Source: Candidatus Omnitrophota bacterium
GTDB lineage: Bacteria; Omnitrophota; Gorgyraeia; 2-01-FULL-45-10
DNA: 64,000 nucleotides
Direction: 5' to 3'
Assembly (NCBI GenBank): GCA_026387175.1
Contig: JAPLME010000012.1
Location: 69,849-133,848, forward strand
Made by a program: the position numbers and the translations under genes. The notes under the pieces were generated by a model. That model was given only the letters and a program-made list of their open reading frames with translations. It did no database searches and was not told where the DNA came from. The number at the start of each line of letters is the position of its first letter. Positions within the stretch are counted from its first letter, which is position 1. Below are positions 14,256-64,000 of the stretch, piece after piece.

Positions 14256-14261
14256 AACCAT

Positions 14262-35099: not shown

Positions 35100-35135
35100 A
35101 ATTTATCAGGACACAAAAAAAGGGGCGCTTCATAT

Positions 35136-36338: not shown

Positions 36339-36342
36339 TCTT

Positions 36343-36412
36343 TAAAATAGGGACAGCGCCCTATTTGTTTTCGAATAAGTCCGGAAAAATAGGGCGCTGT
36401 CCCTATTTTTCA
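36343..36412 (+). terminator. palindromic double hairpin with T-tract between MFP and RND genes (intra-operon attenuator/terminator candidate)
   Basis: aaaATAGGGacagcgCCCTATtt ... aaATAGGGcgctgtCCCTATTTTT. The two arms are exact reverse complements. Confidence 0.45.
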
Positions 36413-36426
36413 AGAGAAAATAACCA

Positions 36427-39615: not shown

Positions 39616-39679
39616 AATCTGATCCACCGAGGGATTGGTCTTGACAAGCTTGACTACTTAAACTTATAATAAAAATTAT

Positions 39680-42838: not shown

Positions 42839-43032
42839 ACCGCGAAGATCGGAAATGACGTCCCATCATACAGTTCCGCTTCAATCGCCACAGGTGTTTT
42901 CCGCAGCATAAAATGCAAAGTAGCCGCAGGCTAAAGAGCACTGTTTTTTAAGCTAGGTTTTCATAGACGTAACTAGCTATAAAATAAGCAAGTTACAATT
43001 GGATTAAGAGCTAAAAAAGGTAGATATTAAGA

Positions 43033-43062
43033 CTTGACAAAGGTTGCATGTATGATATACTT
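43033..43062 (+). promoter_or_regulatory. sigma70-like promoter candidate for the giant gene
   Basis: TTGACA, 17 nt, TATACT, within the 350-bp gap after the RND genes. Confidence 0.3.
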
Positions 43063-43188
43063 AGTATGTAAATATGAATAGAAAGGCAGATAGTAAAAAT
43101 TTGAAAAGGTTTTTGATAACAAGCGTGGCGCATAGTTTCTTTATATTATAGTGGTATCATATAATTAGCTACAAGAGGGCGGCCTCTA

Positions 43189-46100
43189 ATGGATATCCGA
43201 AACGACGAAAAGACTATTGATTCGGCCAGAGAAGAACTTGGCTCGAAATCTTTGATAATGGACTTACAAAGTCCTCGGCATAAGATATGGATGCGTGCTA
43301 TAGCGGTAATTCTCGTCGTCACATTTATAAATCAGGATATCATATGGGCGCAGGATGGAGCTCCTGTCTGGTCCAAAGGACAGAATGGGAGCTTTTCTTT
43401 TAAGCCGCCCGTCAATGTAAACAGTCCGATCAATGTCCCCAAGGATGTCGCCGTCACTAAGGAAGTCTATACCGCTCCCGGCGATAAGACTATCATAAAC
43501 ATCCAGGATGCCCACTCATCTCTCGGCGCCCAGGAGTCGATAGCTTCAGTGCTCGACTCATTAGTGACTAATTATGACCTAAAGCTTATAGCTATAGAAG
43601 GCTCTTCAGGTTACATAGATACGTCCATCCTCAGGGCTTTTTCAAACGAAAATGTCAGAAAAGGAACCGCAAGCTACTTGGTTAAAGAAGGCAGGATGTC
43701 AGCGGGCGAATTCTTCACTGTCACATCGAATAAGCCGGTGGCCCTCTACGGAATCGAAGACAAGCCCCTATACCAGGAAAACCTTGAACAATTCAGAGCT
43801 GTTTACCAGGCAAACAGTGAAATCAGGAAAGACATTGAAAACCTGCTCTCATCGCTTAAAACCCTCCAAGATAAGATCTATTCCCAGGAGTTGAAAGACC
43901 TTACCACCAATTCGGTTCTGCACAAGGACGGCAAGCTTACATTCACCGAGAGGTGGAGCCTGGTGAAGGCCCTTGCTGATAGGACCGGCTCTGACTACAA
44001 GAGATACGAGAACTTGACCAAGCTTGTCGAGTCTCTGAAACTGGAGAAAGATATCAGTTTCGAGAAGGCTAATAAGGAGAGAGACTCTCTTATAGACGCG
44101 CTTAGCAAAAAGGCCTCCAAGCAGGACCTGGAACAGATAGTCCTGAAATCGCTTTCATACAAGACCGGCAAGATTTCACATGGTGAGTATTATGTCTTCC
44201 TGCAGGAACAGGCCGAGAAGGCCGGCATTGACGCGGAGCCTTATAAGAACCTGATATCATACACAAATTACATTACGCTCTATGAATCGATAGATCTCAC
44301 CGCCATCTTCGAAGAGGTGAGGGATTTTGAAGACCAGATAAAAGAAAAACTCTTCACCGGAGAAGACCAGAAGAAGCTTTACGAGATAACGAAGTGCATG
44401 GAATATTTGAGAGATATCTTTGACCTGAAGCTGACTAACGGTGACTTTGAATATCTGGCCAAGAATATCGAGCACTGCAACGCTGGCTTTGTGGCATCCT
44501 TCATAAGGGACGCCTCGATAAAATACGGCGTTACGATCGACACGGATTACGATCTCGGTAAGATATTCGGCGCTCTCCCCCAAGCGATGGATTTCTACAG
44601 GACGGCCGAGAAGAGAAATCATACGATACTCGCCAACACAATTGCCACAATGAAAGAGCGTAATCAGAACGTAGCGGCTCTTATAACAGGCGGTTACCAC
44701 TCGCAGGGCATAACGGAACTATTAAGACAGAACCGCACATCCTATATTGTAATACTCCCGAAGTTCGACGCCTCGAAGGGCGAGAGGCCATATGTGGCGA
44801 TCCTTACGAATAAATCAGCTCCGTACGAGAAACTCCTCAAGAGCGGACAATACTTCATCGCCACGAGCGCGTATCTGGCCGGAATAAGCAAACTCAATGA
44901 GGATGTCAATAATCTGCCGGCGGGCAAAGATTCAAAGGAGTTGATTAATAGCTCGGAATTTAAGGAGCTGCGGGCTAGGCTCGCTGATAGTTTGATCGCG
45001 TCCTTATTACAGTCAGTTACTGGCGCCGCAGGTGTAGATGCGGCTGTCCTGGCGTTTAAGAAGAGACAGCAAGTTAATTTATTAGGCGCCGGCAGGGAAA
45101 TGAAAGCCGCGGTCGAGCAATATCTGAGAGACTATACAATGCTTCTAGAGCGAGAAGGAGCAGGATTTCGTGATGCAAATGTTAAGCCGCTCTCTCCTGA
45201 AGTATTGCAAGAGCTGGTTCGCGAAGTTATATTGGATTATGCGGGTTTTGATATTTCCGCAGAGGAGCCGACGGAAGCTAAGGGCCTAGCCACCGAAAAA
45301 GTTATTCCGCTGGTTGAAGAGCGGATAAAAGGACTAACCAAGAGAATAGAAGTGCTCGAAGATCAGGACAAGCAGGCGAAGATCGATAAGATAATAGACA
45401 TTGTGAAGTCCGCGGCCAATCTTGAATCGAGCGACTGGAAAGAGAAGGTTGCCACTGCGGTTGCCACCGAGTTACGGCGCAAGGGTTTGGGCACAGAAGA
45501 GCAGGATAATATTACAAACCGGATTATAACGGATCTCGAGCAGCAGGCCGTTGCGGCGGCGAAACCGGTTGTAGTTGCCGTGCCTGCAGCTCAGACTCCT
45601 GCAGTTCCGATGGTTTTAAGTCAAGCGCCGACAGCTGTTGAGCCGGCCGCATTGCCTGCGCCAACTATGCTTGATCAGGGCGGAAAAGATCTTGCAGGGA
45701 AGCTTGCTGAGGCAATCGGTAAGCAGTTAGATATTATAGAAGAAAATATGAATGGTATACCATGGGGAGAGAAAAACTTAAGCGCTGATACCATGAAAAA
45801 GCTGCAACAGATGAAAGAAGCTGGACTCGGAATAACTAAGATTATAGACCAAACAGCTAAAAACATAGACTTATCTCCTCACCAAAGGGCGTTAATCGAT
45901 ACTATATCGCGTGGTGGGGAAATTAAGTTTTATGATTTAAAGAACGGCATTGCGCCTTTAGTTTCATATCTAGACATGATTATAAAAGATGAAAATGCGC
46001 ACGAATTGCTAACAAAAATTTTGGAAAGATGTAAACAAACTGTTTCTTATCTAAAGAGGGCTTCGTTTGAGAATGAGCCAATGGCAGTTTTAACTATTAG

Positions 46101-49100
46101 AATTTCCGGAGAAGAGCTTAACTTCGTACAGTTACGTGATTGGAAAAAAGAGCCGCCAGAAACTCCGGAAGAATGGAAGGGTAAGTTAGCTCAGGATGGA
46201 TTAAACGCGCGAGAGATAGATGCAAAGTTAAAAGAGCTTGCCGATAAAACAGTTATTGCACCAACCCCTCCTATAAAGCCCACTCCAACGGTTAGCGAAT
46301 CAGCCGCACAGCGGGTTATATTAGATTTCTCAAGCAAAAATGCTAAGTTGGCCTTTGACGCGCTTATTGAGACCTTGAAAACCGAAACCGTCGATACTGA
46401 AAAAGCTATTATAGATAGCATGATTCCAAAGAATAGCACCCCCGACCAGCCGACCACGGTCTTGCATTTAGCCGGAGCAGAACAAAGAGGTTTTAACGAC
46501 TTTTTACGGAATGAAGTAGAGGTGAAGAGAAATGCAAAGCTTATAGGGCTTGACTTAAATTATTCACTAGCTGATGAGGAAAAGAAGTTATTTATAGGAG
46601 ACATTACAGGAGATAACTCTCGCAAAATAGCCGATGGATCGGTTAACACTATAATATCCGTAAATTTCTTTAATGCGGAGTGCTATAAGTTATATGAAAA
46701 AGCCCGCGAAACACCACTCTCCGAAACGGACTATTATATTAATATCGCGGCGGAAATTTACAGAATGTTAAGAAACGGCGGAAAGCTTTATATTGCCGGT
46801 TCTAGTGTGACCAGTGAGTTTGAAAAAGCATTCAAAGCAGAATCCTTCAAGATGATGCCGCTGGACGATACCATGCCTGGATTTTATGAAATAATCAAGA
46901 TCGCGAAAGCCGGCCCGGAGACACCCGGCGGACCTAGCGAACGCGTCGGGTCCGTGGCAGGAGAAACTCCTGTCGCACCGCCGGCAGTGCAAGCGGCTCA
47001 AAGAATTTTAGTCGAAGTTTGTGGAAAAGCAGGCTATCCATTCGTCAATATTTTATTAACATTTATCCTTACACTATTTATACTTGTCTCAAGCTCAGTT
47101 TACTCAATAGCCGCTCCGGCGCGAACTGTTCCGGGAGGTCCACAGATAAAACTGGCACAAGCAGTAAAAATGCCTACGGCGGTACGAACTAAGGCCCCGG
47201 TAAAAGCGCAACCTGCGCCGGTACAGGCTGTTAAGCCGCCGTCTTTGGTGGCCGAAAAGCAGTTCGCGCTTGACCAGAAAAAGCTCCGGGATGCGATCGA
47301 TACTTATTTCGCAAAAATGGCTTCTTCGCAGTATTTCATGTATAGAGCTCCACGCCTCAACTCCGAAAGCAAGATGATAGAAAACCCTCTCCTTATAGAT
47401 GCATTCGTCAATAACCGGGGAAAGTTAGCTCTAAAAGATTTTCGTGGTGTTCCCGGCCTGGAAAATATGCCTGAAACCAGGATAGATAACATCAACCGCA
47501 TCATCGATGAAATATGGAGGAGCGTTGACAAGACGGCCCTGCCGGAATATATAAAAGGTAAGCTGGTGCTGGACAGGAAAACAGGACGATTATCGCCGGT
47601 AGAGGAGCTTCAGAAGACGCTGTTTGCGCTCTCTGTTCTTGCTCCCGATACGTATGAGTATCTGAAAAATGATAATGCGCCTATTGTTTTGGTTGATACC
47701 GATTGGTTTTCCGGCGCCACTAAAGGCGATACTTTTTTCGGCATGATAGCGCGCAATCCTCGCGGAGTGAAAATAGAGCTAAGCAGCCGGAATAACACCG
47801 TTAAAAGAGTCGGGACGGCCGTTCATGAGGCCATTCATCGTAAGAGAGGCGATGTTGCCACAGGTTATTTTAGCCTCTATCTTAAAACGTTGGGCCGCAT
47901 CCGGGAGCTTTTTGTCAGCCTCCCTTCGTTCGAAAAAGAGCCAATTAAGAAACAGCAGGATTTTTATAAGAAAGAATTGCTCATAAATGTGTCGGCAGAG
48001 GTTTTAAACAATGCCTATTTAAGCCAGCGCTGGTGGCTGGGCCTGATCGGTGTCATGGCCTGGGTATTGACGATTATTACGCCTGCCGTATTGATTGCGA
48101 AACTCATTGTCTCTTTGGTCTCGAGCAAAAAAGAAGGTGCTGGGAGACGTCCCGGGCCCACCACATTTATGCTGGCATTCATTTTACCGCTCATCGCGAC
48201 CGGTCTCGCGGGACTGCCCGTGATAGGCCAGCAAGTGAACAATTTTGCCGGTATGCTCTTTTCGCCGATACCATTGCCGGAGATCGCTCCCGGAGAAAAG
48301 GTCGCCGCTAAGAAGAAAGCAGGTTCGGATGTCCAGACAATAGTTGACAGGACTATCGGGAAATTTTACGCCGGCATAAACGCGCCTCCCGTGGTGCTCG
48401 ATAATAACCTCTTTGACCGTTTCTGCGCGTTCGATCCGGAAGACGGCACCATTCATATAAGTCCCAGAGCGTATGATCCTAAAACCGGAAGGGTAATAGA
48501 AGAGGTAAGACTCTTCCACCTGCCGCATGAAGCATTCCACTATGCTTTGCAGATGACACCCATTAATAAGAATGAGAAAGCGCATGAGATCGCAGCCACA
48601 TATCTCGCCCTCCTTAATATAATCACCAATCGCAGCAGCTTGACAAAATTGATAAATGCTGCAAATCCCGTAGATGGGCGTGAGGTCTCTGCCGGCATGA
48701 AGGGGATAGTTAAGTATTTTGAAAGCTTCGGATTCGATGTAAAGAATATAAATAATTACCGCGCCCTCTTATCCGCTTTAAACGTCGATGGATTAAGAGG
48801 GATCGCTTCATACCTTGCCTCGACCAACCCTGATTTTAGAAATATTTCCGATAGAGATATGGCTTCGGCTGTAAGGCTCATTAGCTCTAAGCCTCAGGAT
48901 GGGATATTCAAACCCTTAAAGAAATTAGATGCCCTCGGGATTAATAAAAAAGGTTATCTTGCAAACCCATACCTGTATGCCGATAAGCTGGTGCGGTTCG
49001 AAGATGCCGGAGTTAAGCTGAGCGCCAAGAATTTAAGTCTACTCTCATTAGGTAGAGATAATATAAAGCCGTATGTAGAAATAGCGTTAGCTAGTGGTAT

Positions 49101-58100: not shown

Positions 58101-61100
58101 TACAGGAGCCGCTCCTTCTGCAGGAAGCAACCCTTCCACAGGAGCCGCTCCTTCGGAGCCGAGCGCTGCCACTACGTCCGGCACGCTTTCAATGGGCGCC
58201 GTTATACGAGTAGCCGATCCCGCATTCAAAGCGAGAATTGCTTACAGAGGCAGCCTCCAAGAAATGTTCAATGCGTATGTAAGGGCGGCAAAGAGCGATC
58301 AGATGATAGAGGCTGAGAGGGCTCAGATCGATGAAGAATTGCTAAAATTCGAACTGCGGGAAGCCAAGAAAAGGCTGGATCTGGCGGTAAGATTAAGAGA
58401 GCTTCGCGATCGCCAGGATAAGGATCAGAAAGTAAGGATAGATGCCGCCGGAAAAGATTTCGACGTTCATAATAACGAACTTCAGGCGAAGAACGATGTT
58501 GCCGATCTTGAACGAAGGCTCAAAGAAATACAATTTAAATATTCCGTGAGAAAGAGTTCGCTTAAATACGGCGTGGATCTTACCGCGGAAGTCGATAAGC
58601 TCATAAAGACATTGGAGTCGATAGATCGGGTGGTCGATATAGCCGATAAGGGAGAGCCATATGATCTTTCTATAACTGGAGAAAATAATATAAAGAATAA
58701 GAGCTGGTGGATAGGCTTGCAGTTGCCTTTCCCCATATGGTTTACAAGCAGGTGGGCCGCTAAAAAGATCAATGTCAAACAAGTGAAAAAAGACCAGCAG
58801 TTGGAGCAGGAGAAAGCAGCGAGTGTAATAATAGGGTGGATAAATGATGATCTGAAAACCGATAATGATCTTACAACCGCCAAGGCGAATGTTAAAGGGG
58901 CGGAGGAGATGATAGCGAAGATCACCAAAGAATTAGACAGGTTAAAAGGAAAAGGCTCGCGAGAAGATATCGTTCTTCGTATAGAGATGGACCTTGCCAG
59001 ATCCAGGATGGCGCTGGAAAATGCAAAAGGAGTTTTAAAGAAAGCAGGGCTCGTAAAAGAACGATCGAAGAAGATCCTTACGGCACTGGACAACTCTCTC
59101 AGAAGAACAGACGATGTTTTGATGGAGTCGCCTTCTGTGACTAAGCTAAAAGATTTTGCGAGAGAGGCATTGAGCCAAAAACGCAGAGGCGACAAGATCT
59201 CGATCACATGGGAAAAGTTTAAAGAGCTGGCGGAAAAGAATGCTGTCCCGGTCAAAATCGCTACCACCGAAAAAGAGAAGAGCGAACTGGAGCTGACGAA
59301 GAAAAAATTGACGGCCCGTCTACCGTACCTCTTCCTTGGAGCCCCTTATGCGCCGGGCGCCGGAAACGACACTTTCCGCTATGGCCTTACGGCTTATACC
59401 GACCCTTCAAGATGGTTTGAGCTCACCAACCCCGCCATTAAAGAGGCCAGGCTCGAAGATATGATAAAACAATTGGATAGCGAAAAGGAAAAGCTTAACA
59501 CGAGATTAGATATAGACGGCGCATACGGAGCCTACAGAGTCGCGCTTGTGAAAGCGGAATCCCTGAAATCTATACTTAAGAAGATGAGAGAGCAAAGATC
59601 GCGCATGGAAGCGCATACCAGGATATATCCAGAATCCGGCGGCGAAGCAGTCAATAGATATGATGTCCTTATCGCGGATACGGAAAAGACGCTGAGAGAT
59701 ACGACGGCTCAGATCAATGATCTCAAGATAAAGATGATGAATATGCTGCAGAGCGTAGGCGATATAGATTTTAAGGATGAGTCCGGCAGATCCGTAGGAT
59801 TGGAGAAGGTAGATTTTGATGCTATCTGGCCCAAAATAGAGGCCGGCCACCCCGATATAAAAGCGCTCAAACTTAGAATAGATAAAGAAGAAGTCTCCGC
59901 AAGGGCCGTATTGCGCGACAATTGGTGGACGGAGCTTTCAATTTCGCTCGTAAACAGCGAAAAATTAACGCCAGGGCTGAATTTAGTTTTAAATGTCAGG
60001 TTGAACCCGAGCTATTGGGAAAATAACGCGGAAAAGATCAGGGTAAAGGAAGTAAAGGAAGAGCTTAGAAAGAACCTTTTTGAATTAAGGCGTAAGATAG
60101 ATGACTCTATATCGAGACGCGCCAATCTTATTGCATCGATAAAGTTGGCAGAAGGTGTTTACAAAGAGAGAGCGCGTATGGTGGTGGAGGAAAGAAAGAA
60201 CTACCTCAACACCACTATTCCCACGGACAAATTACGCGAGAGAGAATACGATCTTCTGGAGGCCCAGAAGGAATACTTTGCGCAGCTTGCGGAACTCCGT
60301 ACAATAGACGCGCAGTTAAAAGATATTGTGGAAAAAGTAGGCGGCAGGATAGAAGAGACCGGCGTGGAAGAGGTTAGGAAAGATATAGTGCGTACTGAGG
60401 AACTCAGCAATGATTTTGCGGATCTCGGCGCGCAGATAGCTATGGCGGAACAGGCCAGACGAGTGGCTTCAAGGGGGATCAAATGGGTCGATAAAGCTTT
60501 AAATAGATTATCGAAAGGCATTACGCCGGAAGACGATCTGGCCGCAGCTCTCGTAAAGACGATGGAGAAGAGTGCTTCGATCGAAGTCAACGCAGCCAAT
60601 TTAAAAGAAGCCGGATATATATCCAGGGAGAAAATGGCCGAGATAGCCGTGCTTATGGGAATGCCGAAGACCCGGGCCCAGGAGCTTGAACGCGTTCAGG
60701 ATCTTCTCAGAGTAGTCTTTGATAGATATAGAAAAGCGCATAACATGACAAAAGATGAAATGTCGGCATATATAGGCAACTTCATATATTTCGCCCGGAC
60801 CATCCTGCCCAAAGTCAAGACAATCGAAACGTTACCCGAATTTGTCGGCACCCAATTCGCGTTCGTGGATAGAGATGAAACCTTAAGTTACAAAAAGCTC
60901 GGGCTGGTAAGCTACTACGCAAGGCGGGCGACCCTTCTTCTGTCGCCGGGATACAGTTGCGAAGGGAAAGGCCAGGGCGCGGCCAGAGATACGCTAGTGA
61001 AGAAAGAGGCCCCTGAAGATATCAAATTCTTAAATATGTATGACAGGATGGCCAAAGGCGGGACCTTAACCGCCGCCGATTACGAGCAATATATAAAATG

Positions 61101-64000
61101 GCACGATGAATTTGTAGCGAAGTTTGACGAGTCCGAATGGGCCAAGTTCACTTTGGACGAGATAACCGTGATGTCGAACCGCGCGAAGGAGTTCGCGACG
61201 CTTCTCCAGAAAAAGGGCCTTTACCTCTTCGGCGACATGAAAGACAAGGGTATCCTAAGCCTCATAGCGAGCCTTATTAAAGTAAACGGCTGGGAAGGAA
61301 AGATGCCGTCGGTGGTCGATACGGTCGCCGCTGTATCGCCAGCTGTGAACAAGTTCTACGGCGAAGTGACGGCCAAAGAGATAGCGAGTACACCAGAAGG
61401 CGCCAAGCTGAAGATGCTTTCCGGGTTAGTGAGCACGGAATCCGACAAAGAGAAGCTGGAATTTTATAAGAATGAATACAGTAAAACCCTTAAAGAGGCA
61501 AAAGAATCGCTAGCGCTCGGCAGGGCCATCTCGTGGGCACGTTTTGTGCTGGACAGGAACCTCGCCCCCGAAGATATGGATATGATGTTCCGCAGATTAT
61601 CCAATCTATCCGCTATAGATAAATACCTGATCGGGACAAAATCCGAGAAAGAGGGGCAGAAGATCGCCATAGTGATAGATCTGGTTACAAATCATAGGGT
61701 CTACAAAGATTTCTTCAATAAAGATGGCACTGTCAAAGATGAGGCGAAGGTTAAGAAGCTGTTTAGTATCTTCGGCAATCTTTCGGCTCTTGACCCTACG
61801 CTAAAAGCTTACGGGTATGCGGCACCTTCCGAGAGAAACGGAATGAAGATAGCGATCGCAAGGGATATCGCCCTTCAGACCGATGCCGATGCATGGAGCG
61901 CGTTTTTTGACTTAGAGGGCCGTATTATAAATCCCGGCAATGTGGATAAGCTGGTTAAATCCTTTACCAATATCTTTGTCCTCGATAGCCTGGGTTATCT
62001 CAAAAACGCAGGCTACGCGAAAAAATCCGATAAAGAAGGTGTGAGAATGGCCATAGCCAGAGACCTGGTCCTGAGGCCAAACGCTTGGAAGAGCTTCTTC
62101 GATCCTGACGGCAATATAGTCGATCAAGAGAAGGTCAAAACTTTATTCAATGTGATACTACCTAACATTGCCAAAGGCCTCGTTTCCGAAAAGATCGAGG
62201 TGCCCGGCACTGAATATGAAAAGACCGGATATATCATGGCCATAGCCAGAGACCTTGTAGAATATCCGCAGAAATGGTCGGGTTTCTTTGACGCAAAAGG
62301 CAACATAATAAAAGAAAATAATTATGTCAAAACCCTGTTCGAGGTTATTCTAAAGAATAAAGATATTCTAGAGAGTTACATGCTTCATATAGACGATAGA
62401 AAAAAAGGATCGACAGGATTTTATACAAAATCCTCTCGGCTTGAGAGAAGCGGTATGCTTACTCCGATGGCGAGAGACCTTACTACTACAGGCATAGATT
62501 CGAAAGAAAAACTGATAGAAGAGCTGGATTACAGAAAAGAGATTTTCAAGGCAGCGAATTCAAACGACGTAAAGTTATTTGATGAGCACCTTCCTTATCT
62601 TTCCGTATACACCAGGAAAGTATTTAAAGAATACGGAGACATATATAAAGACAAGACAGGAAAAGAGCTTACTCTGGACATACTGTTTAAGAATATCGCT
62701 TATGCTCGAGATACGGTCTATCCGATGGCAGGAAAAGATCTCTTAGAAGATTTGAAGGGTAAGCGCGAAAGTTGGGAGACAGATAGCGAAAGAAAGGCAC
62801 TGCTTAAACACATTGAGATGCTTAGGAATGAAGAGATAAATTTTGAATCGGCGGTTTATCTTGGCACAAAATATATGGTCTTAAAAGGCTATACGATAGA
62901 AGACGATAAGAGTAAGGAAACATATTTCCAGGAAGTCAAAAACAGGTTATATTTCCAGGCCGTGTATATGGCCAATAATGAAAATGAAAGATTGCAGCAA
63001 GGCGAGATAGGCCAGCTGCTTACTTTCCGTGCAACGGATAACTATAGCAGAATAGACATGGGTAAATTCATAAAATATGCGTCTGTATTCATCAGGAAAG
63101 AAAAAGAACTGTTAAATTCATTAGTTAAAAAGTTCGGGGAAGAGGCAATGGGAGCGTATCAATTTGCCACTAGAGGCCAGCGGTCCGGATTTATTACCTA
63201 TATGCATCGCAAAGGCTGGGACCAGAAAAAGATGGACGAGATATTTAAAGATATCGAATTCATCCAGATGGAAGAATACACTGCCACAAGTAATAAAAAG
63301 TTTATCGGATGGGAGAATATATTCCCTGTTCTTTATCAGTTGCGCGGTGATGGTGATAAGCCGCTCGATATGTGGGAGCAAAAACGCGCGCACCTCAGGT
63401 TCCAAAGCACTTTTAAACAGGATTACGCATTTATGTACGCAGGGCCTTATGAACCGCTCGCTCAGCTTATGAGAAAATGGAAGGGTGACTTTGGTGAGTT
63501 GCCATCCGCGGCTGAAAGATCGGATACTTTAAAAGTCATGGGTCTCTTGCCCGAAAAATTGCGTGATGATAATACGGAATTGCCCGAGACAAGGCTCCGT
63601 CAGGCTAAGTTAGGCGAATTCACCGAAGAGCTTGGCAGTATATATAAATCATTCGCTGTTCTCATGGCAGGACCTGTTTATGAAAAGGATATGAATGCAG
63701 ATATCCTGGCCGGACTAGAGGAACCTTGGAAAGATATGAGAGAATTTGTTGGCGATAAACTCATGAGATTTATCACCGACAAAACAGACCGATACTACAG
63801 GATAGAAGATAATCATGAAAGGCTGAACTTAAAGGAAGAGACATTAAGGCACTATCGGTATGAACTAAAGGATGAAAAGAAGAATAGGGAGAAAGGGAAT
63901 ACCGACATTCTATTGGATCCGGCCAGAAGAGCGGAAGCCATTGCCAGGCTGCAGAGGAAAGCCGAGGAGAAGACACCAGAGAAAGAAAGTTATAAGATAA
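43189..64000 (+). CDS. giant multidomain protein, 3'-truncated by window end (at least 6,937 codons in-window)
   Basis: ATG 43189 is 9 nt after AGAGGG. Reading triplets in that phase gives sensible protein with no stop through 64000; phase was rechecked at 43189, 48031, 49321, 57841 and 63931. The ORF track shows no stop-terminated + ORF in this phase anywhere in 20.8 kb, and only short out-of-phase or antisense ORFs. Confidence 0.85.
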   Translation, partial: MDIRNDEKTIDSAREELGSKSLIMDLQSPRHKIWMRAIAVILVVTFINQDIIWAQDGAPVWSKGQNGSFSFKPPVNVNSPINVPKDVAVTKEVYTAPGDKTIINIQDAHSSLGAQESIASVLDSLVTNYDLKLIAIEGSSGYIDTSILRAFSNENVRKGTASYLVKEGRMSAGEFFTVTSNKPVALYGIEDKPLYQENLEQFRAVYQANSEIRKDIENLLSSLKTLQDKIYSQELKDLTTNSVLHKDGKLTFTERWSLVKALADRTGSDYKRYENLTKLVESLKLEKDISFEKANKERDSLIDALSKKASKQDLEQIVLKSLSYKTGKISHGEYYVFLQEQAEKAGIDAEPYKNLISYTNYITLYESIDLTAIFEEVRDFEDQIKEKLFTGEDQKKLYEITKCMEYLRDIFDLKLTNGDFEYLAKNIEHCNAGFVASFIRDASIKYGVTIDTDYDLGKIFGALPQAMDFYRTAEKRNHTILANTIATMKERNQNVAALITGGYHSQGITELLRQNRTSYIVILPKFDASKGERPYVAILTNKSAPYEKLLKSGQYFIATSAYLAGISKLNEDVNNLPAGKDSKELINSSEFKELRARLADSLIASLLQSVTGAAGVDAAVLAFKKRQQVNLLGAGREMKAAVEQYLRDYTMLLEREGAGFRDANVKPLSPEVLQELVREVILDYAGFDISAEEPTEAKGLATEKVIPLVEERIKGLTKRIEVLEDQDKQAKIDKIIDIVKSAANLESSDWKEKVATAVATELRRKGLGTEEQDNITNRIITDLEQQAVAAAKPVVVAVPAAQTPAVPMVLSQAPTAVEPAALPAPTMLDQGGKDLAGKLAEAIGKQLDIIEENMNGIPWGEKNLSADTMKKLQQMKEAGLGITKIIDQTAKNIDLSPHQRALIDTISRGGEIKFYDLKNGIAPLVSYLDMIIKDENAHELLTKILERCKQTVSYLKRASFENEPMAVLTIRISGEELNFVQLRDWKKEPPETPEEWKGKLAQDGLNAREIDAKLKELADKTVIAPTPPIKPTPTVSESAAQRVILDFSSKNAKLAFDALIETLKTETVDTEKAIIDSMIPKNSTPDQPTTVLHLAGAEQRGFNDFLRNEVEVKRNAKLIGLDLNYSLADEEKKLFIGDITGDNSRKIADGSVNTIISVNFFNAECYKLYEKARETPLSETDYYINIAAEIYRMLRNGGKLYIAGSSVTSEFEKAFKAESFKMMPLDDTMPGFYEIIKIAKAGPETPGGPSERVGSVAGETPVAPPAVQAAQRILVEVCGKAGYPFVNILLTFILTLFILVSSSVYSIAAPARTVPGGPQIKLAQAVKMPTAVRTKAPVKAQPAPVQAVKPPSLVAEKQFALDQKKLRDAIDTYFAKMASSQYFMYRAPRLNSESKMIENPLLIDAFVNNRGKLALKDFRGVPGLENMPETRIDNINRIIDEIWRSVDKTALPEYIKGKLVLDRKTGRLSPVEELQKTLFALSVLAPDTYEYLKNDNAPIVLVDTDWFSGATKGDTFFGMIARNPRGVKIELSSRNNTVKRVGTAVHEAIHRKRGDVATGYFSLYLKTLGRIRELFVSLPSFEKEPIKKQQDFYKKELLINVSAEVLNNAYLSQRWWLGLIGVMAWVLTIITPAVLIAKLIVSLVSSKKEGAGRRPGPTTFMLAFILPLIATGLAGLPVIGQQVNNFAGMLFSPIPLPEIAPGEKVAAKKKAGSDVQTIVDRTIGKFYAGINAPPVVLDNNLFDRFCAFDPEDGTIHISPRAYDPKTGRVIEEVRLFHLPHEAFHYALQMTPINKNEKAHEIAATYLALLNIITNRSSLTKLINAANPVDGREVSAGMKGIVKYFESFGFDVKNINNYRALLSALNVDGLRGIASYLASTNPDFRNISDRDMASAVRLISSKPQDGIFKPLKKLDALGINKKGYLANPYLYADKLVRFEDAGVKLSAKNLSLLSLGRDNIKPYVEIALASGINPNDMTLAILRAQKAEVAVPAAAPAILLEEAKAPAPVEPAELQLPAAIPPVVEIIPGETDIQKKALQVFGEVRGIPAEKLSYRKGQIEAVEAMKEGKFAELRTGGGKTLTEGVTALEVLNDPIRQTVWPGEKVLIMTHEDNLTEQAMVKDKMGAILSKCGAVTGFILPKVMANGSVAEIGVIFENGVEVESEAAIDKVFERCDIIYGKWDRFVHRNMKERLGTDTLEMNTNKYFTLFDEADLMLVFGSATPCIISGKDMDDAEKRLAVRKGINSIVKEMVLKNQKRYLYIPQGTREAYLTDSGEQAIEKKIRELYKDNEYKELLDIAVKNWKIFAMDALQANLFYKVDEQYFLRTDEKGKVIGVDVCDTDTKARKTGMSFGEGLQQAIEISAGVADANLTPETYTSMSMAIGNFLSRDIITDYAGASGTMEKERFENMYMDKHGKIKTVLKIEGESQTLDKSAGHTGFNTREEKWAALIDRLPAKMSLGQPILIKIESDAEMAELKKYIEANMASMLAERGTIINLASGRNAAEFTENIAKAGYGNVITIVTNIAHRGIDIEIKGRFLNNDGTEGAKVPPIDKDAPGLHVISTYLDEPEAFEIQTQGRADRGANKGSWEGLFSLDEKIFTEHVTLLDQQIAALRNAVGKGDKTAIDGLMAADGRTVRLGLIAEIRDRIVSEQSRNDEKRREYENEVFAYQEKILGLLNITTSRDEFIKFLKAIGAYDGIVNNLKEGETIDEKIAVLAQLTVSVLTDEMSKFQTEQQVIRKRLDYLAREARLGLRPALIQFNKEIANLALLARTFDARIKDAKAFVSAIIAQDMGDKVENVAETGKRSLRDLISTNFIKTFASIIMIVGAGFLTAKYGFSSLADSILQPLVTLLTAHPLLAGIAAAMMLISAVYLKQLYGKKIGVLDTSNTEFLRFTVGVGRGNFFKAFGRWTGIMALQILAGPGLFVGAGTLIAAIAHPILAVGSVALPLALVTVTLALAANITLIAIFKSKLETVRDITPTRFQSGFNTFVRALAISIGVVFALQMAGGILATTLISLGFIVVTAVVAGLVARSIENRSYRAKLPVFIGGAYGIIAAVGLIVLSAIFGTPAVFSSALIMPLISIPVAVIGIAMMILQVVQARKVALEAERAGQSYWRTLAESFVPNSRNILMYAMSLPAVFILFSGAVPALIFVGAVGFGTLLINKYSVNIEKMTGRKMSETISGMAGQAIMLSAGAAPMVAYPQAAYSAQVESLKAGLKQGAMDRAAIAAAETIGKYSPKQFSGFERLSNNISSVFDDIMNGKAVVAPETLQITAPAAPQVTEKAIEEQVKPKEKPQVGETPGGGTAGQGPAAGPGAGGIPPPPPVIPEVQPAPEQISPVPTPVRMEKPDLASVLKDARESNLAVAKLVSPLANFINQGNVISNVGGPTDNPNILIIRNILKALDYNLDGEAVAALQEKHNLAKQDGKIGRETMAALIGELLALDNSADVAKTISKNTAMEIASLREKAAEVEKKQFAGAAGVNQAGANPKLLDNMAALQEEIYAKYGWRFYKLSVVRTKEREAMVVKKHYKDLKYKDSEKIAELADYIIDPANSLLPADEANQLKARYPDVERLINNSPHVRGIAMDIYLIDENGIVRDSHVSANRYMYDIVGKLAAEKYGMIYGGNFKGLFKDDTMHFQLDPRNLAIELAKEEAAAAKEPKKVTKKAMERKPRAGLDEAFKRIENWAGKVAATVKSAADKLTLTPMGFPIWGTSAACSPSNGEYLIAGGPLGSIGKADKCYVFGREGIIAPHASFLALDVAPAEAMWNIDEMIKLYPQVLGKYGMYDSVNAKNEQSSRQYVAVNQAMSFIAMVNCLKGGVIQDRFASNAAIKKSISLLNETFDKIETPAGLSLDRNISSEDRNRLLSIAQKTWDYFKDNVNESTNWLPPNMIDSRGAAVKHTSITDIGLYLTSIVGAKELGLIDEAEARTRIINTINTLKKLDKWNGLYRNYYHTDDLKSVTKGDRHISTVDNGWLAAGLIIAGETFPGLQAETANIVMNMKFDKLYDAKEQKFANGYDEDTGLTKSHYGLIYTEIRPALLIAIAKGDIPKEAWLKTSKTLPEAWDWQAQKPKEGYYEHRVKTGVGVETAHFIPSWNGTMFEGLMPNMILNNRTLSPNGYAKQDAMYVFLQKYFATGFREVAPPVTETPTPVTQPQVAPAPAAPEKGEIPQFADLANALKYARENNPAVAILISRPSNFINQGNVIKRTKSPGIDPNTKVIQGALISLGYDLPKYKDDGIYWTETEAAVRKFQEDHRLAKRDGKVGRETMTSLIRELLLRESKARPTPIETAVTPVAPSAKPIVIAAPKPAVTAVPSPAKPAVTVPQAKPTVTAVPRPAEPAVAIAPAKPAVSVVPSSAKPAVTAAPKLAKPQVSPAPETAVAATPAELKAARQALFRKKGEYGAELSKATRKLDELKEVKVRASAQISGNLKELDRETIPAGALVPTGPQRRVSFRDASENSTASADAEMKRLRITRQELLAKRTSRLYWPEVIGFAGIGFPGAAFVGVTVSHWLKYPGRETIVESAEMKTERAKQEEALFKRQLLFGLTRAFGLCQIAEKELDAAQVSYKTSLEALKTALAQFEKGELTKGELENLKAKQNEANVRYLKAQQASRNARELVKSLAGYDVREGVEIDTSVSPDKEFARELEKLEDRNRQPRILLKVLGIKDQTLNTLFAMEQRNTAVKLNARATLNLGAVTSANFGVGFEITLGKDVDLQLRQLEERLAEGKYIQELRNMYLESAELMHGLKLYNDTLARLVKIAKNAREKAEEDKVKAKNNIISQDDYLKKELEAIRAEVLVKQFKALIKNVRSMLAELGIESNDIPRNLSEENMLVAAKELMRRRANESILYLKALKTPESTLRKIDENVNNLLADRSFYREATNRWVVEEAEIFEKIQKRIVSEEIMKNKSLKERVQTLSAGYTYTREQAVAQQTLSTGQAPIGGGGGAPIIQPWPSTAVSSTGAAPSAGSNPSTGAAPSEPSAATTSGTLSMGAVIRVADPAFKARIAYRGSLQEMFNAYVRAAKSDQMIEAERAQIDEELLKFELREAKKRLDLAVRLRELRDRQDKDQKVRIDAAGKDFDVHNNELQAKNDVADLERRLKEIQFKYSVRKSSLKYGVDLTAEVDKLIKTLESIDRVVDIADKGEPYDLSITGENNIKNKSWWIGLQLPFPIWFTSRWAAKKINVKQVKKDQQLEQEKAASVIIGWINDDLKTDNDLTTAKANVKGAEEMIAKITKELDRLKGKGSREDIVLRIEMDLARSRMALENAKGVLKKAGLVKERSKKILTALDNSLRRTDDVLMESPSVTKLKDFAREALSQKRRGDKISITWEKFKELAEKNAVPVKIATTEKEKSELELTKKKLTARLPYLFLGAPYAPGAGNDTFRYGLTAYTDPSRWFELTNPAIKEARLEDMIKQLDSEKEKLNTRLDIDGAYGAYRVALVKAESLKSILKKMREQRSRMEAHTRIYPESGGEAVNRYDVLIADTEKTLRDTTAQINDLKIKMMNMLQSVGDIDFKDESGRSVGLEKVDFDAIWPKIEAGHPDIKALKLRIDKEEVSARAVLRDNWWTELSISLVNSEKLTPGLNLVLNVRLNPSYWENNAEKIRVKEVKEELRKNLFELRRKIDDSISRRANLIASIKLAEGVYKERARMVVEERKNYLNTTIPTDKLREREYDLLEAQKEYFAQLAELRTIDAQLKDIVEKVGGRIEETGVEEVRKDIVRTEELSNDFADLGAQIAMAEQARRVASRGIKWVDKALNRLSKGITPEDDLAAALVKTMEKSASIEVNAANLKEAGYISREKMAEIAVLMGMPKTRAQELERVQDLLRVVFDRYRKAHNMTKDEMSAYIGNFIYFARTILPKVKTIETLPEFVGTQFAFVDRDETLSYKKLGLVSYYARRATLLLSPGYSCEGKGQGAARDTLVKKEAPEDIKFLNMYDRMAKGGTLTAADYEQYIKWHDEFVAKFDESEWAKFTLDEITVMSNRAKEFATLLQKKGLYLFGDMKDKGILSLIASLIKVNGWEGKMPSVVDTVAAVSPAVNKFYGEVTAKEIASTPEGAKLKMLSGLVSTESDKEKLEFYKNEYSKTLKEAKESLALGRAISWARFVLDRNLAPEDMDMMFRRLSNLSAIDKYLIGTKSEKEGQKIAIVIDLVTNHRVYKDFFNKDGTVKDEAKVKKLFSIFGNLSALDPTLKAYGYAAPSERNGMKIAIARDIALQTDADAWSAFFDLEGRIINPGNVDKLVKSFTNIFVLDSLGYLKNAGYAKKSDKEGVRMAIARDLVLRPNAWKSFFDPDGNIVDQEKVKTLFNVILPNIAKGLVSEKIEVPGTEYEKTGYIMAIARDLVEYPQKWSGFFDAKGNIIKENNYVKTLFEVILKNKDILESYMLHIDDRKKGSTGFYTKSSRLERSGMLTPMARDLTTTGIDSKEKLIEELDYRKEIFKAANSNDVKLFDEHLPYLSVYTRKVFKEYGDIYKDKTGKELTLDILFKNIAYARDTVYPMAGKDLLEDLKGKRESWETDSERKALLKHIEMLRNEEINFESAVYLGTKYMVLKGYTIEDDKSKETYFQEVKNRLYFQAVYMANNENERLQQGEIGQLLTFRATDNYSRIDMGKFIKYASVFIRKEKELLNSLVKKFGEEAMGAYQFATRGQRSGFITYMHRKGWDQKKMDEIFKDIEFIQMEEYTATSNKKFIGWENIFPVLYQLRGDGDKPLDMWEQKRAHLRFQSTFKQDYAFMYAGPYEPLAQLMRKWKGDFGELPSAAERSDTLKVMGLLPEKLRDDNTELPETRLRQAKLGEFTEELGSIYKSFAVLMAGPVYEKDMNADILAGLEEPWKDMREFVGDKLMRFITDKTDRYYRIEDNHERLNLKEETLRHYRYELKDEKKNREKGNTDILLDPARRAEAIARLQRKAEEKTPEKESYKI
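46450..46810 (+). other. giant protein sub-region: class-I SAM-methyltransferase-like fold (degenerate)
   Basis: VLHLAGAEQRG...KLIGLDLN....LFIGDITGDNSRKIADGSVNTIISVNFF......INIAAEIYRMLRNGGKLYIAG follows the motif I / post-I / II / III spacing of Methyltransf_11-type domains. Confidence 0.4.
49290..50990 (+). other. giant protein sub-region: SecA-homologous ATPase motor (NBD1-PPXD-NBD2)
   Basis: Motifs in SecA order: AELRTGGGKTLT; IIYGKWDRFVHRNM; LFDEADLMLVFGSATPCIISG; MSFGEGLQQAIEISAGV; YAGASGTM; TNIAHRGIDI; QTQGRADRGANKGSWEGLFSLDE. Confidence 0.8.
51630..52810 (+). other. giant protein sub-region: polytopic membrane domain (~8-10 TM helices)
   Basis: Consecutive 20-25-aa hydrophobic stretches (FASIIMIVGAGFLTA..., IMALQILAGPGLFVGAGTLIAAIA..., ALAISIGVVFALQMAGGILATTLISLGFIVVTAVVAGLVA..., and others). 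Confidence 0.65.
53230..53520 (+). other. giant protein sub-region: PG_binding_1-like domain, copy 1
   Basis: NFINQGNVI...ILIIRNILKALDYNLDGEAVAALQEKHNLAKQDGKIGRETMAALIGEL. Confidence 0.55.
53650..54130 (+). other. giant protein sub-region: M15-family zinc D,D/L,D-peptidase-like domain
   Basis: SPHVRGIAMDIYL fits the SxHxxGxAxD zinc motif. DDTMHFQLD fits the C-terminal His of VanY/M15_4-type peptidases. Confidence 0.55.
54290..55610 (+). other. giant protein sub-region: alpha/alpha-barrel glycoside-hydrolase-like domain (GH144/putative-glucoamylase-like)
   Basis: STNWLPPNMIDSRGAAVKHTSITDIGLYLTSIVGAKELGLI...NGWLAAGLIIAGETF...W resembles DUF3131/glucoamylase-like patterns. Recalled from memory, weaker than the other calls. 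Confidence 0.4.
55720..56040 (+). other. giant protein sub-region: PG_binding_1-like domain, copy 2
   Basis: NFINQGNVI...VIQGALISLGYDLPKYKDDGIYWTETEAAVRKFQEDHRLAKRDGKVGRETMTSLIREL. Confidence 0.65.
56050..56340 (+). repeat. in-frame tandem ~33-nt repeats encoding (P/S)AKPAVTAVP units
   Basis: AKPIVIAAPKPAVTAVPSPAKPAVTVPQAKPTVTAVPRPAEPAVAIAPAKPAVSVVPSSAKPAVTAAPKLAKPQV. Confidence 0.7.
56800..60400 (+). other. giant protein sub-region: several TolC/OEP-like repeats
   Basis: ATLNLGAVTSANFGVGFEITLGKD, KNKSWWIGLQLPFPIWF, DNWWTELSISLVNSEKLTPGLNLVLNVRL, each followed by helical QL..LE..L..G.IS..D.L-type segments characteristic of the OEP family (PF02321). Confidence 0.55.
61650..62480 (+). repeat. 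four in-frame ~58-aa tandem repeats ([GN]xKIAIARD[IL]..x..W..FFDxxGNI.......VKxLF.)
   Basis: QKIAIVIDLV...FFNKDGTV; MKIAIARDIALQTDADAWSAFFDLEGRII; VRMAIARDLVLRPNAWKSFFDPDGNIV; YIMAIARDLVEYPQKWSGFFDAKGNII. Confidence 0.65.

Follow-up and report, generated by a model that had tools for sequence, protein, structure and literature searches.

Giant multi-transmembrane (multi-TM) proteins of Omnitrophota with divergent SecA_DEAD and preprotein-binding domains, lacking the SecA scaffold and wing, have been described, and export in cis by the SecA-like domain has been proposed for them (West-Roberts 2023, 10.1101/2023.11.21.568195). The Archaeovorin set of the same study features glycosyltransferases, methyltransferases, glycosyl hydrolases, peptidases, NUDIX and HEAT domains. 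A 20-protein architecture cluster with SecA (PF07517) was documented among proteins of at least 10 kaa (Nielsen & Lui 2026, 10.64898/2026.06.07.730766), and ORFs longer than 20 kb have been tallied for five Omnitrophota classes (Seymour 2023, PMC10066038). The size thresholds of these works differ: >20 kb in Seymour 2023, at least 10,000 aa in Nielsen & Lui 2026, and at least 30,000 aa (>90 kb) in West-Roberts 2023. Type II secretion or pilus genes near the giants are common, though not universal. So far, the biochemistry of Omnitrophota giant proteins consists of peptide detection in one species.

The window analysed here, i.e., the whole stretch of 64,000 nt, holds a giant ORF that is a further member of this published class and not a new kind of system. 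Most likely, 43189–63999 represents the first 20.8 kb (5′ end) of a true giant gene of Omnitrophota, in the SecA-like multi-pass membrane class. An earlier note on this DNA had claimed a stop-free frame of at least 6,937 codons running off the window end, no stop-terminated ORF in its phase, only short ORFs elsewhere in the region, and a product above 750 kDa even when truncated. All of this held on recomputation: machine translation of 43189–63999 (table 11) returned no TAA, TAG or TGA in 6,937 codons, no listed ORF of at least 150 aa lies in the phase of 43189, the largest ORFs listed in the region are antisense and no longer than 261 aa, and the window-truncated product has a mass of 771 kDa. 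The five remaining frames of the same region contain 163–529 stops each, with 287 codons as the longest open run. A non-standard genetic code was rejected as an explanation of the open frame, since all three standard stops are absent from it.

The open length from ATG 43189 to the window end (20,811 nt) exceeds the 20 kb of Seymour 2023, with 6,937 aa visible before the window end. Relatives run on in frame for at least 145–187 aa beyond the equivalent of this point, and complete proteins of 7,834 aa with the same N-terminal (“head”) domain exist; hence, the full gene may fall below the 10,000- or 30,000-aa thresholds. It would be a comparatively small and readable giant, whose module order within 7,000 residues hints at a route leading out of the cytoplasm to the outer membrane.

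The suggested mosaic of membrane, ATPase, cell-wall-lytic, OEP-like and repeat modules was found in full (Table 1), the ATPase being SecA-like and the lytic part comprising M15, glucanase-like and PG-binding modules; the accompanying statement that no family could be named fell, as giant multi-TM SecA-like Omnitrophota proteins had already been published as a class. The ORF shares with the published giants the divergent SecA_DEAD and preprotein-binding domains with scaffold and wing absent, the many TM helices, some of them adjoining these domains, an N-terminal region that databases leave unannotated, and a set of mostly extracytoplasmic, cell-wall-directed domains. Unlike the Archaeovorins, it carries in the visible 6,937 aa only an M15 peptidase and a glycoside-hydrolase-like domain: the Pfam search revealed no glycosyltransferase, NUDIX or HEAT domain in this length, and a methyltransferase hint stayed below the threshold. 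Dockerin-type domains, reported in West-Roberts 2023, had no Pfam match in the 6,937 aa either. At the same time, M15 and TolC/OEP modules in giants are unmentioned in the main texts of West-Roberts 2023 and Nielsen & Lui 2026, and glucoamylase-like modules in the main text of West-Roberts 2023.

Table 1. Features of the giant ORF and its start region (positions in the window; aa, residues of the product).
Feature	Position	Strand	Basis or remark
Sigma-70-like promoter candidate, TTGACA-16 nt-TATACT, with TG extension	43034..43061	+	Consensus match only
Shine-Dalgarno-like AGAGGG	43174..43179	+	9 nt 5′ of the ATG; read from the sequence
Giant ORF, 6,937 codons without a stop	43189..63999	+	5′ part of the gene; passes the window end
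Signal-anchor or signal-peptide-like helix AIAVILVVTFINQDIIWAQ, aa 37–55	43297..43353	+	Kyte-Doolittle scan; R/K before the helix
Head domain, aa 56–570 (~510 aa)	43354..44898	+	EreA/ChaN/Tiki/TraB-like alpha/beta core (structure model)
Lineage-variable region, aa 571–1285	44899..47043	+	No Pfam match
TM helix 2 (aa 1286–1304), 320-aa basic segment, TM hairpin (aa 1626–1644, 1661–1679)	47044..48225	+	Hydropathy, charges
SecA-like ATPase, NBD1-PPXD-NBD2, aa 2055–2604	49351..51000	+	Pfam, NCBIfam, PDB alignment
~9-TM block, aa 2817–3163, directly after the SecA-like module	51637..52677	+	Hydropathy and charge counts
Duplicated module, copy 1, aa 3352–3445	53242..53523	+	Ends in a weak PG_binding_1 match, 19.8 bits (cut-off 23)
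Peptidase_M15_4, LAS-type cell-wall peptidase, aa 3581–3645	53929..54123	+	Pfam, 30.4–32.7 bits (cut-off 25)
(alpha/alpha)6-type beta-1,2-glucanase-like domain, aa 3712–4127	54322..55569	+	Pfam and PDB sequence matches
Duplicated module, copy 2, aa 4178–4278	55720..56022	+	PG_binding_1, 60.3 bits (Pfam)
Pro/Ala-rich linker, AKPAVT-type	56115..56329	+	Diverged 60-nt tandem repeat
TolC-like region, aa 4476–5696	56614..60276	+	Pfam OEP
Lys/Glu-rich C-terminal region, aa 5720–6937	60346..63999	+	Runs past the window end; Pfam and PDB gave no match

The hallmark of the class, the SecA-like module, scored 48.4 bits with SecA_DEAD, 41.7 with P-loop_SecA and 26.8 with SecA_PP_bind in Pfam, and carries Walker A (LRTGGGKT) and Walker B (DEAD). 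It shares with canonical SecA (E. coli, 6gox/2fsf) the Walker A xRTGxGKT, the Walker B DExD, GxxGT and the RGxxxRG region. The NCBIfam SecA models were matched only over positions ~83–560 of ~800, the PDB alignment covers only residues 82–583 of E. coli SecA, and no SecA scaffold, wing or C-terminal domain is recognisable in the giant protein. Canonical SecA is a free, soluble protein of ~800–900 aa docking on SecY, whereas this motor is internal to a giant membrane protein of at least 6,937 aa and, judging by the sequence, would be covalently joined to a 9-TM block of its own. Its identity to ordinary SecA is 25–30%, versus 38–65% to Omnitrophota giant-gene fragments.

The 9-TM block, which has no Pfam match and no meaningful PDB match, is conserved together with the SecA module in the relatives P0001, L005–L007, P0156, P0146, P0243 and P0128. 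Overall, the hydropathy scan revealed ~13 hydrophobic helices: one N-terminal, three in the variable region and nine in the block. The topology is based on a Kyte-Doolittle hydropathy scan with a K/R charge count and not on a trained predictor; the K/R counts alternate cleanly over the nine helices, therefore the chain is predicted to exit the block outside, which would place at least 3,770 aa after the block outside the cytoplasm. The domains found C-terminal to the block are all of periplasmic or outer-membrane types. The loop of the TM3–TM4 hairpin is positively charged, which is at odds with a cytoplasmic SecA segment under the simplest model.

The N-terminal hydrophobic helix is kept in the relative CP070780.1, whose alignment starts from aa 31. 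Behind it, according to the structure model, the head domain has the alpha/beta core fold of the EreA/ChaN/Tiki/TraB superfamily, which harbors erythromycin esterases, the haem-binding lipoprotein ChaN, TraB/PrgY, the Tiki and RRSP proteases, and HopBA1. The head domain differs from this superfamily by a helical insertion of ~300 aa and by its giant-protein context; in sequence searches of Pfam and PDB it matched no superfamily member. Its conserved motifs are IQDAH, IAIEG and ITGGYH, and the residues D70, H72, E100, G464, G465 and H467, near-invariant across 25 sequences, follow core strands in the model. The head domain starts ~7,900 protein clusters and, in the hits examined, sits right at the N-terminus or close to it in very large proteins of Omnitrophota, behind a signal-anchor; it is undescribed in the main texts of the preprints West-Roberts 2023 and Nielsen & Lui 2026. 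Its conserved His/Glu/His thus offers a testable enzymatic handle on the processing or action of the giants.

Between the head domain and the SecA module, the spacing among relatives ranges from ~900 to ~3,100 aa. The lineage-variable region is partly kept in L005 (aa 786–1022, 27% identity), and the segment aa 1288–1696 shows 38% identity with the same relative; a comparable hairpin is located upstream of SecA in L001. A PDB sequence search with the N-terminal 2,000 aa gave nothing meaningful. Two HExxH motifs, at aa 1546 and 1780, were weighed as candidate metalloprotease sites and dropped, there being no family match; L001 reads MHEKGE roughly where the motif at aa 1780 falls (as judged without a formal alignment).

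Downstream of the 9-TM block, the two copies of the PG-binding module flank the cutting modules; the DNA at 53243–53344 is 75% identical to that at 55721–55822, before copy 2, and PHROGs matches to endolysin families were obtained at the PG-binding module 55720–56022 only. The M15 module reads, in translation, SPHVRGIAMD with MHF downstream; the former fits SxHxxGxAxD, the metal-binding motif of M15 (LAS) peptidases. In the glucanase-like domain, Pfam recognised Glycoamylase (51.3 bits) and DUF3131 (42.7 bits), both above threshold, and the PDB matches were 8wy1_A (E 4e-44), 8rf9/8rf0 (E 6e-34) and 5gzh (E 5e-5). Judging by these sequence matches, the domain is clearly related to the GH144 endo-beta-1,2-glucanases and to the domain that carries out cyclization in cyclic beta-1,2-glucan synthase. 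The alignment with the latter (8wy1_A) consists of four segments over most of the domain (query 113–209 to 469–571, 220–490 to 4–417), so the segment order of the giant is circularly permuted relative to it. Unlike GH144 (5gzh), 8wy1 and 8rf9, the domain is one module within a giant protein, with PG-binding modules on either side.

Tandem Repeats Finder (TRF) delimits the repeat of the Pro/Ala-rich linker at 56128–56296 (period 60, 2.8 copies, 64% matches). In the TolC-like region beyond it, OEP (PF02321) scored 76.4 bits in three stretches over aa 4400–5720, above the gathering score; in single tiles, two scores (42.9 and 27.2) passed the cut-off of 22 and two (19.6 and 20.1) fell just short of it. 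The putative repeats lie at aa ~4476–4630, 5167–5280, 5344–5474 and 5547–5696. The region resembles TolC/OEP in its long helices with short hairpin-like interruptions, arranged in repeated units. In contrast to TolC, a free protein of ~450 aa with a signal peptide and two repeats, which trimerises to form a 12-strand barrel and a helical tunnel, it would be an internal region of ~1,250 aa with four to five repeats, and it is split by a linker (Gly/Ser/Pro, 58089–58154) and has thousands of residues on both sides. Five hairpin-like breaks are present among the long helices, and the six expected under the idea of a single-chain pseudo-trimeric TolC are not reached. The hhalign comparison of the five putative OEP units with each other and with the upstream OEP protein gave no significant match, and the AF2 model of aa 4476–5675 (1,200 aa, three-sequence alignment) was unusable (pLDDT 48, pTM 0.26). 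Among relatives, OEP was detected above the Pfam threshold in P0122 (NCBI name “TolC family protein”, 40.6 bits) and L007 (48.6 bits). TolC-like repeats in giants of at least three lineages make the engagement of the outer membrane a testable idea.

The Lys/Glu-rich tail bears diverged repeats of ~65 aa with the motif MAIARD (aa ~6190–6520) and is homologous at 25–34% to pieces of CP070780.1 and to L005. Self-BLAST revealed no strong protein repeats inside the giant product.

Put together, these modules suggest a protein anchored in the inner membrane, with the SecA-like motor likely residing in the cytoplasm just ahead of the 9-TM block. Being translated ahead of the long C-terminal part, the motor probably assists in cis in moving this part through the membrane, although the SecA-like domain may serve some purpose other than self-export. 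The exported part would bind peptidoglycan, and the TolC-like repeats may extend to the outer membrane or insert into it. The peptidase and glycanase modules would cut cell-wall peptides and periplasmic or envelope glucans, possibly acting on the cell’s own wall and so making room for the giant protein across the envelope; their target may instead be a host or prey cell to which the bacterium is attached, which fits the predatory or episymbiotic lifestyle proposed for the tiny bacteria of Omnitrophota.

A bolder version, which we consider improbable, is that the visible part encodes a self-contained envelope-spanning conduit in one polypeptide. The SecA motor and the 9-helix block may then form an engine with its own inner-membrane channel, followed by wall-anchoring and path-clearing modules and a TolC-like exit duct, where four to five or more OEP repeats per chain may build most or all of the barrel normally made of three subunits; the EreA/ChaN/Tiki/TraB-like head domain may serve as a processing or priming enzyme. 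If true, such a conduit would be a new covalently linked secretion or contact apparatus and not a passive surface coat.

The relatives tie the ORF to its class and bear on how the product is used. As the earlier note had supposed in linking the gene to the giant genes of Omnitrophota, all named close homologues belong to Candidatus Omnitrophota, and every named homologue of four separate parts of the protein is assigned to Candidatus Omnitrophota/Omnitrophica, which indirectly points to an Omnitrophota genome. Three independent metagenome contigs, L005, L006 and L007, contain single open frames of at least 6,063, 5,326 and 7,703 codons, respectively, and in each of them a single frame unites head domain, SecA module and TM block; the same order is seen in P0156, P0146, P0243 and P0128. 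L005 also has the C-terminal tail behind the TM block, and L006 has PG_binding_1 there; OEP is found again in L007 and in CP070780.1. The genome scan with the SecA region found just one 2.7-kb Omnitrophota fragment, a search for homologues of the C-terminal 1,217 aa one fragment only, and the metagenome scan with the C-terminal alignment no relatives. Not all relatives keep the modules together: in L003, a head-domain protein of 1,516 aa is followed 570 nt on by a separate SecA-module gene in a different frame, and in L002 a SecA-module gene without the head domain has its own start after unrelated genes.

Such separability of the modules, together with the Pro/Ala- and Gly/Ser-rich linkers between them, speaks for a fused operon or polyprotein, i.e., a real frame whose product would be split, autocatalytically or by foreign proteases, into a head-domain protein, a SecA-TM translocase, wall hydrolases, a TolC-like protein and a tail, each working by itself; the size would then serve to co-express and co-target the parts. 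The superfamily of the head-domain fold includes proteases (Tiki, RRSP, TraB), and cleavage by N-terminal peptidase domains has also been considered (West-Roberts 2023). On the other hand, L005–L007 retain everything in one frame, the 20.8 kb without a stop argue for selected continuous translation, and the HExxH motifs are weak evidence of a protease. On balance, processing of this kind seems unlikely but deserves to be taken seriously; it overlaps the explanation preferred here, a genuine giant gene of the SecA-like class, and does not exclude it.

Far less probable is an assembly artefact, in which separate genes, of one genome or several, were mis-joined across internal repeats with the joins in phase by luck. 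The window is probably metagenomic, internal repeats occur at 56.1–56.3 kb and 53.2/55.7 kb, and the pieces of CP070780.1, which lie out of order with 100-N gaps between them, show that such genes scramble easily. Still, the risk of a chimera flagged in the earlier note turned out to be slight: the longest internal DNA repeats measure 62 nt (82% identity) and 102 nt (75%), i.e., too short and diverged to mislead an assembler or cause an assembly collapse. Many random in-phase joins without a stop are very unlikely, the module order is repeated in the independent contigs, and the overlaps between the CP070780.1 pieces follow the order that this window predicts. Across the giant ORF, GC content, skews and codon usage stay even and agree with those of the upstream genes. 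The codon-usage log-likelihood, trained on 20 upstream genes and scored over thirteen 1.5-kb tiles, was positive for frame 0 in every tile (0.15–0.33) and negative for frames 1 and 2; for six of the 20 training genes, the corresponding score was 0.32–0.44. With 13 of 13 tiles coding in frame 0, the giant ORF is coding over its entire visible length in a single phase and uses codons as the host does.

A decaying or non-functional gene remnant, or a frame left open through chance or unusual composition and not through selection on a protein, is effectively refuted: although aa 571–2040 and 5720–6937 have no recognisable domain and the lowest tiles score 0.15–0.18, stops are expected at 5.6% of codons from the base composition (probability of none in 6,937, ~1e-174), no tile loses its coding signal, the catalytic and nucleotide-binding motifs are kept in the SecA and M15 modules, and the unannotated parts are conserved in distant relatives at 25–38% protein identity.

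The start of the gene seems well placed. The last in-frame stop before the ORF is a TAA ending at 43164, and ATG 43189 is the first start codon thereafter; it is supported as the start by the alignment with the closest long relative, L005, which begins at residue 1 (76% identity). The sequence elements named earlier were found again: the AGAGGG before the ATG, the gap of 350 nt after the RND operon, whose second AcrB gene ends at 42838, and, within this gap, the TTGACA/TATACT pair, matching the consensus at 11 of 12 positions and the best among the sites in 42700–43400.

Directly upstream lie an OEP-HlyD-AcrB-AcrB operon (OEP 33096–35099) and ROK, TPR and ParA-like genes. The RND operon and the other upstream neighbours show no synteny with the relatives; therefore, no functional link between this operon and the giant gene is claimed. 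No type II secretion locus adjoins the giant ORF on its upstream side within the window; 31 kb upstream, three ORFs (9978–12431) form a pseudopilin-like cluster, with two prepilin-type N-termini and a DUF7305 protein.

Translated with the bacterial code, the interval 43189–63999 comprises 6,937 codons and 0 stops, so the frame opened by ATG 43189 indeed runs to the window end without an in-phase stop, as the earlier note had claimed. The five other frames across the same 20.8 kb contain 163–529 stops each, their longest open run being 287 codons; the ORFs listed across this region are short, as had been stated, and exclusively antisense. The stop frequency expected from base composition is 5.6% of codons, therefore the chance of encountering 6,937 codons without a stop is ~1e-174. 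The last in-frame stop ahead of the gene ends at 43164, and the next start codon is ATG 43189. The landmarks reported around this start were found in place: the 350-nt gap separating it from the second AcrB gene, the promoter-like TTGACA-16-TATACT pair (43034–43061, plus a TG extension) and AGAGGG, located 9 nt 5' of the ATG. The computed mass of the visible part of the product, 771 kDa, bears out the estimate of more than 750 kDa even for a truncated chain.

The coding signal was assessed as a codon-usage log-likelihood, with 20 upstream genes as the training set. Frame 0 scored above zero in all thirteen 1.5-kb tiles of the gene (0.15–0.33), and both remaining frames scored below zero; six of the 20 training genes, taken for comparison, yielded 0.32–0.44. 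GC1, GC2, and GC3 agree with those of the neighboring genes, and the GC content and skews are uniform window-wide. The reading of this frame as a giant gene was right, and the observation underlying it is real and robust.

Features of the visible part of the giant gene product (residues counted from ATG 43189)
Feature	Residues	Window positions	Remarks
Signal-anchor, hydrophobic	37–55		preceded by a K/R-containing N-terminus
Head domain, conserved	56–570	43354–44898
Region between head domain and SecA module	571–2040		TM helix 1286–1304, TM hairpin 1626–1679
SecA-like ATPase (SecA module)	2055–2604		Pfam SecA_DEAD, SecA_PP_bind, P-loop_SecA, each above threshold
TM block, nine hydrophobic helices	2817–3163		clean alternation of flanking K/R counts
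Duplicated module ending in PG_binding_1, copy 1	3352–3445		weak match
Peptidase_M15_4 domain	between PG_binding_1 copies		motif SPHVRGIAMD
(alpha/alpha)6-type domain	3712–4127	54322–55569	homologous to beta-1,2-glucan-acting enzymes
Duplicated module ending in PG_binding_1, copy 2	4178–4278		strong match
Pro/Ala-rich linker	3' of second PG_binding_1 copy		diverged 60-nt repeat
OEP (TolC-type) repeats	4476–5696		76.4 bits, three stretches
Tail, Lys/Glu-rich, helical-looking	last 1,200		diverged ~65-aa units, MAIARD-like motif

The head domain is very widely distributed. A full HMMER search with aa 56–1255 against 1.84 billion cluster representatives returned 7,878 proteins at E<=1e-3, of which 2,601 also pass E<=1e-30. 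Among the 150 matches listed, the alignment is limited to the first ~510 query residues, i.e., the head domain, which resides at or near the N-terminus of proteins up to 7,834 aa long. One such protein of ~7.8 kaa is represented by eight identical-length copies on contigs of 50–144 kb; therefore, complete head-domain proteins of this size exist. Only 6 of the top 150 matches also harbor the SecA module. Another 11 matches (3.8–5 kaa) contain HEAT repeats along with PEP-utilising, phosphorylase, ROK, HD, and further domains, a repertoire published for other Omnitrophota giants. All named cluster members among the matches are from Omnitrophota.

The head domain has no sequence match in Pfam or PDB. 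In its AF2 model, which is based on 25 sequences (pLDDT 79.5, pTM 0.68), a small alpha/beta core accommodates a ~300-aa helical insertion, and the predicted fold is EreA/ChaN/Tiki/TraB-like. The signature of that superfamily is GxxH / E / GxxH, and the near-invariant D-x-H, E, and GG-x-H positions of the head domain parallel it. The main text of neither West-Roberts 2023 (bioRxiv 10.1101/2023.11.21.568195) nor Nielsen & Lui 2026 (bioRxiv 10.64898/2026.06.07.730766) mentions such a domain, and the former reports that identifiable domains are generally missing from the N-terminal regions of giants. This looks like an undescribed domain family, meriting a profile of its own. Between the head domain and the SecA module (aa 571–2040), the domain search found nothing recognizable.

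The SecA module aligns with residues 82–583 of E. coli SecA, retaining Walker A (LRTGGGKT), Walker B (DEAD), the GxxGT motif, and the RGxxxRG region, and NCBIfam SecA models align over positions ~83–560 of ~800 only. No match to the helical scaffold, wing, or C-terminal domains of SecA was found in the giant gene by the SecA model and PDB alignments. The TM block is without a Pfam or PDB relative; from the alternating K/R counts around its nine helices, the chain is predicted to exit on the outside. One weakness of the overall topology is the positive charge in the loop of the TM3–TM4 hairpin, which is at odds with the simplest topology.

All recognizable modules beyond aa 3163 are of periplasmic or outer-membrane types. 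The M15 and glucanase-like enzymes are bracketed by the two copies of the duplicated module, visible in the DNA as a 102-nt direct repeat (53243–53344 vs 55721–55822, 75% identity), which encodes …L(K/A)…ARE(S/N)N…AVA…FINQGNVI… ahead of each PG_binding_1 domain. The (alpha/alpha)6-type domain matches 8wy1_A (E 4e-44), cyclic beta-1,2-glucan synthases (E 6e-34), and a GH144 endo-beta-1,2-glucanase (E 5e-5); the segments matching PDB 8wy1 stand in circularly permuted order, the C-terminal part of the reference preceding its N-terminal 400 residues. Tiles of the TolC-like region scored 42.9, 27.2, 19.6, and 20.1 bits against OEP, and no more than five hairpin-like breaks can be seen there. The tail matches no known domain in Pfam or PDB.

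Homologue searches with three parts of the protein revealed a very small set of close relatives, each a fragment named Candidatus Omnitrophota or Omnitrophica: seven for the SecA-plus-TM query (38–65% identity), two for the TolC-like region, and one for the C-terminal tail; one 2.7-kb genome contig is among the Omnitrophota relatives. Scanning metagenomes with a SecA-TM alignment and fetching 23-kb loci added three long contigs, L005 (open frame of at least 6,063 codons, head-domain identity 76%), L006 (at least 5,326 codons, 47%), and L007 (at least 7,703 codons, 44%). In each, the SecA module lies within one open frame which begins with the head domain and continues past the locus. The spacing of these two domains varies among relatives from ~900 to ~3,100 aa. 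L005 shares with the giant gene aa 1288–1696 as well as the C-terminal tail (25–32% identity) and has no counterpart of aa 3300–5800; beyond the TM block, L006 carries two PG_binding_1 modules and L007, ~1,870 aa further on, OEP repeats. These differing layouts mean that the family is modular, with a conserved backbone (head domain, SecA-like motor, nine-TM block) and a variable exported part.

On the CP070780.1 scaffold, the head domain, the TolC-like region, and the tail are all represented by homologues, on pieces lying out of order with 100-N gaps in between; where one piece ends, it overlaps the beginning of the other exactly as the window predicts. This 1.43-Mb Omnitrophota record (locus L004, 352094–377036, reversed) was deposited as a single sequence with 100-N spacers; the tail piece precedes the TolC-like one, and the head piece lies 6 kb beyond. 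Its giant-gene homologue, annotated as several ‘partial’ proteins, is interrupted by a frame break within an A-run (~7787). Past the equivalent of position 64000, the CP070780.1 relative proceeds in frame for 187 aa and L005 for at least 145 aa, so the giant gene very probably continues as well.

In two other relatives the modules are separate genes. L003 encodes a 1,516-aa head-domain protein (4105–8655) and, adjacent to it in a different frame, a SecA-module gene (9224–11311); in L002, the SecA-module gene (10001–14603) starts alone, after PBP, CotH, and GH3 genes. Thus, gene fusion and fission appear to create and dismantle the giant architecture. The same loci lend some weight to the gene being a polyprotein or fused operon, as do the linkers rich in Pro/Ala or Gly/Ser and the occurrence of proteases in the superfamily of the head domain; this explanation is plausible, if on balance unlikely, and compatible with the main one, a genuine giant gene of the published Omnitrophota class. 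That the frame is an assembly chimera is very unlikely, since the internal repeats are short and diverged, the composition is uniform along the region, and the same module order recurs on independent contigs. A non-functional frame is effectively excluded by the lack of stops, the positive coding score in every tile, and the homologous frames in L005–L007.

The gene agrees with the published Omnitrophota giant class on every testable point: an ORF of more than 20 kb, Omnitrophota origin (by homologue names), numerous TM helices, and a divergent SecA domain in which scaffold and wing are missing. The earlier impression of an unnameable, near-unique architecture was hence mistaken. In its visible 6,937 aa, encoded by the 5' part of the gene, the product does not fit the ‘Archaeovorin’ or ‘Dockerin-type’ domain sets. 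Two details are possibly new: the predicted fold of the head domain together with its very wide distribution, and the recurrent embedding of TolC-like repeats in giants. OEP/TolC and M15 modules are unmentioned in the main text of either preprint (West-Roberts 2023; Nielsen & Lui 2026), and only this gene was seen to combine TolC-like repeats with a glucanase-like domain and a wall peptidase.

With the architecture and the predicted topology established, we infer a working mechanism. The SecA-like motor should be cytoplasmic because it needs ATP. It would be translated first, then the nine-TM block and the exported part, which spans at least 3,770 aa; therefore, the motor would be membrane-tethered exactly when the long segment must cross. 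The two PG_binding_1 modules of the exported part may bind peptidoglycan, the M15 domain may cut stem peptides, and the glucanase-like domain would target beta-1,2-glucans, found in the periplasm of Gram-negative bacteria. The TolC-like repeats could extend to the outer membrane or become inserted in it. That one polypeptide forms a motor–channel–duct conduit, perhaps including a TolC-like barrel made from a single chain, is improbable. The motor-first order fits the proposal that SecA-like domains of giants drive the export of their own protein (West-Roberts 2023). The lytic modules might serve remodelling of the own wall or an attack on the host or prey envelope; the literature favors attachment and cell-wall degradation in predation or episymbiosis (West-Roberts 2023; Seymour 2023, PMC10066038).

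An RND efflux operon (33096–42838) is situated directly upstream of the giant gene. In it, a single HlyD-type adaptor is followed by two tandem AcrB paralogues (1,062 and 1,052 aa), and the OEP protein is unusually long (667 aa), a Pro/Lys-rich N-terminal extension of ~200 aa preceding its first OEP repeat. The upstream neighbors, including this operon, show no conservation or synteny with the giant genes of relatives, so no functional link between the operon and the giant gene is drawn. Type II secretion or pilus genes have been reported close to many Omnitrophota giants. Three consecutive ORFs at 9978–12431, 31 kb upstream, constitute a minor-pilin or pseudopilin cluster; prepilin-type N-termini are seen in the first two (KKGFALLEV, KSGFTMVEI), and the third encodes a DUF7305 protein. 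At 25109–28250, a 610-aa ORF that no Pfam family matches overlaps the beginning of a gene for a ParA/MinD-like ATPase (AAA_31); next come a single-TM-helix ORF of 150 aa and a TPR protein of 867 aa.
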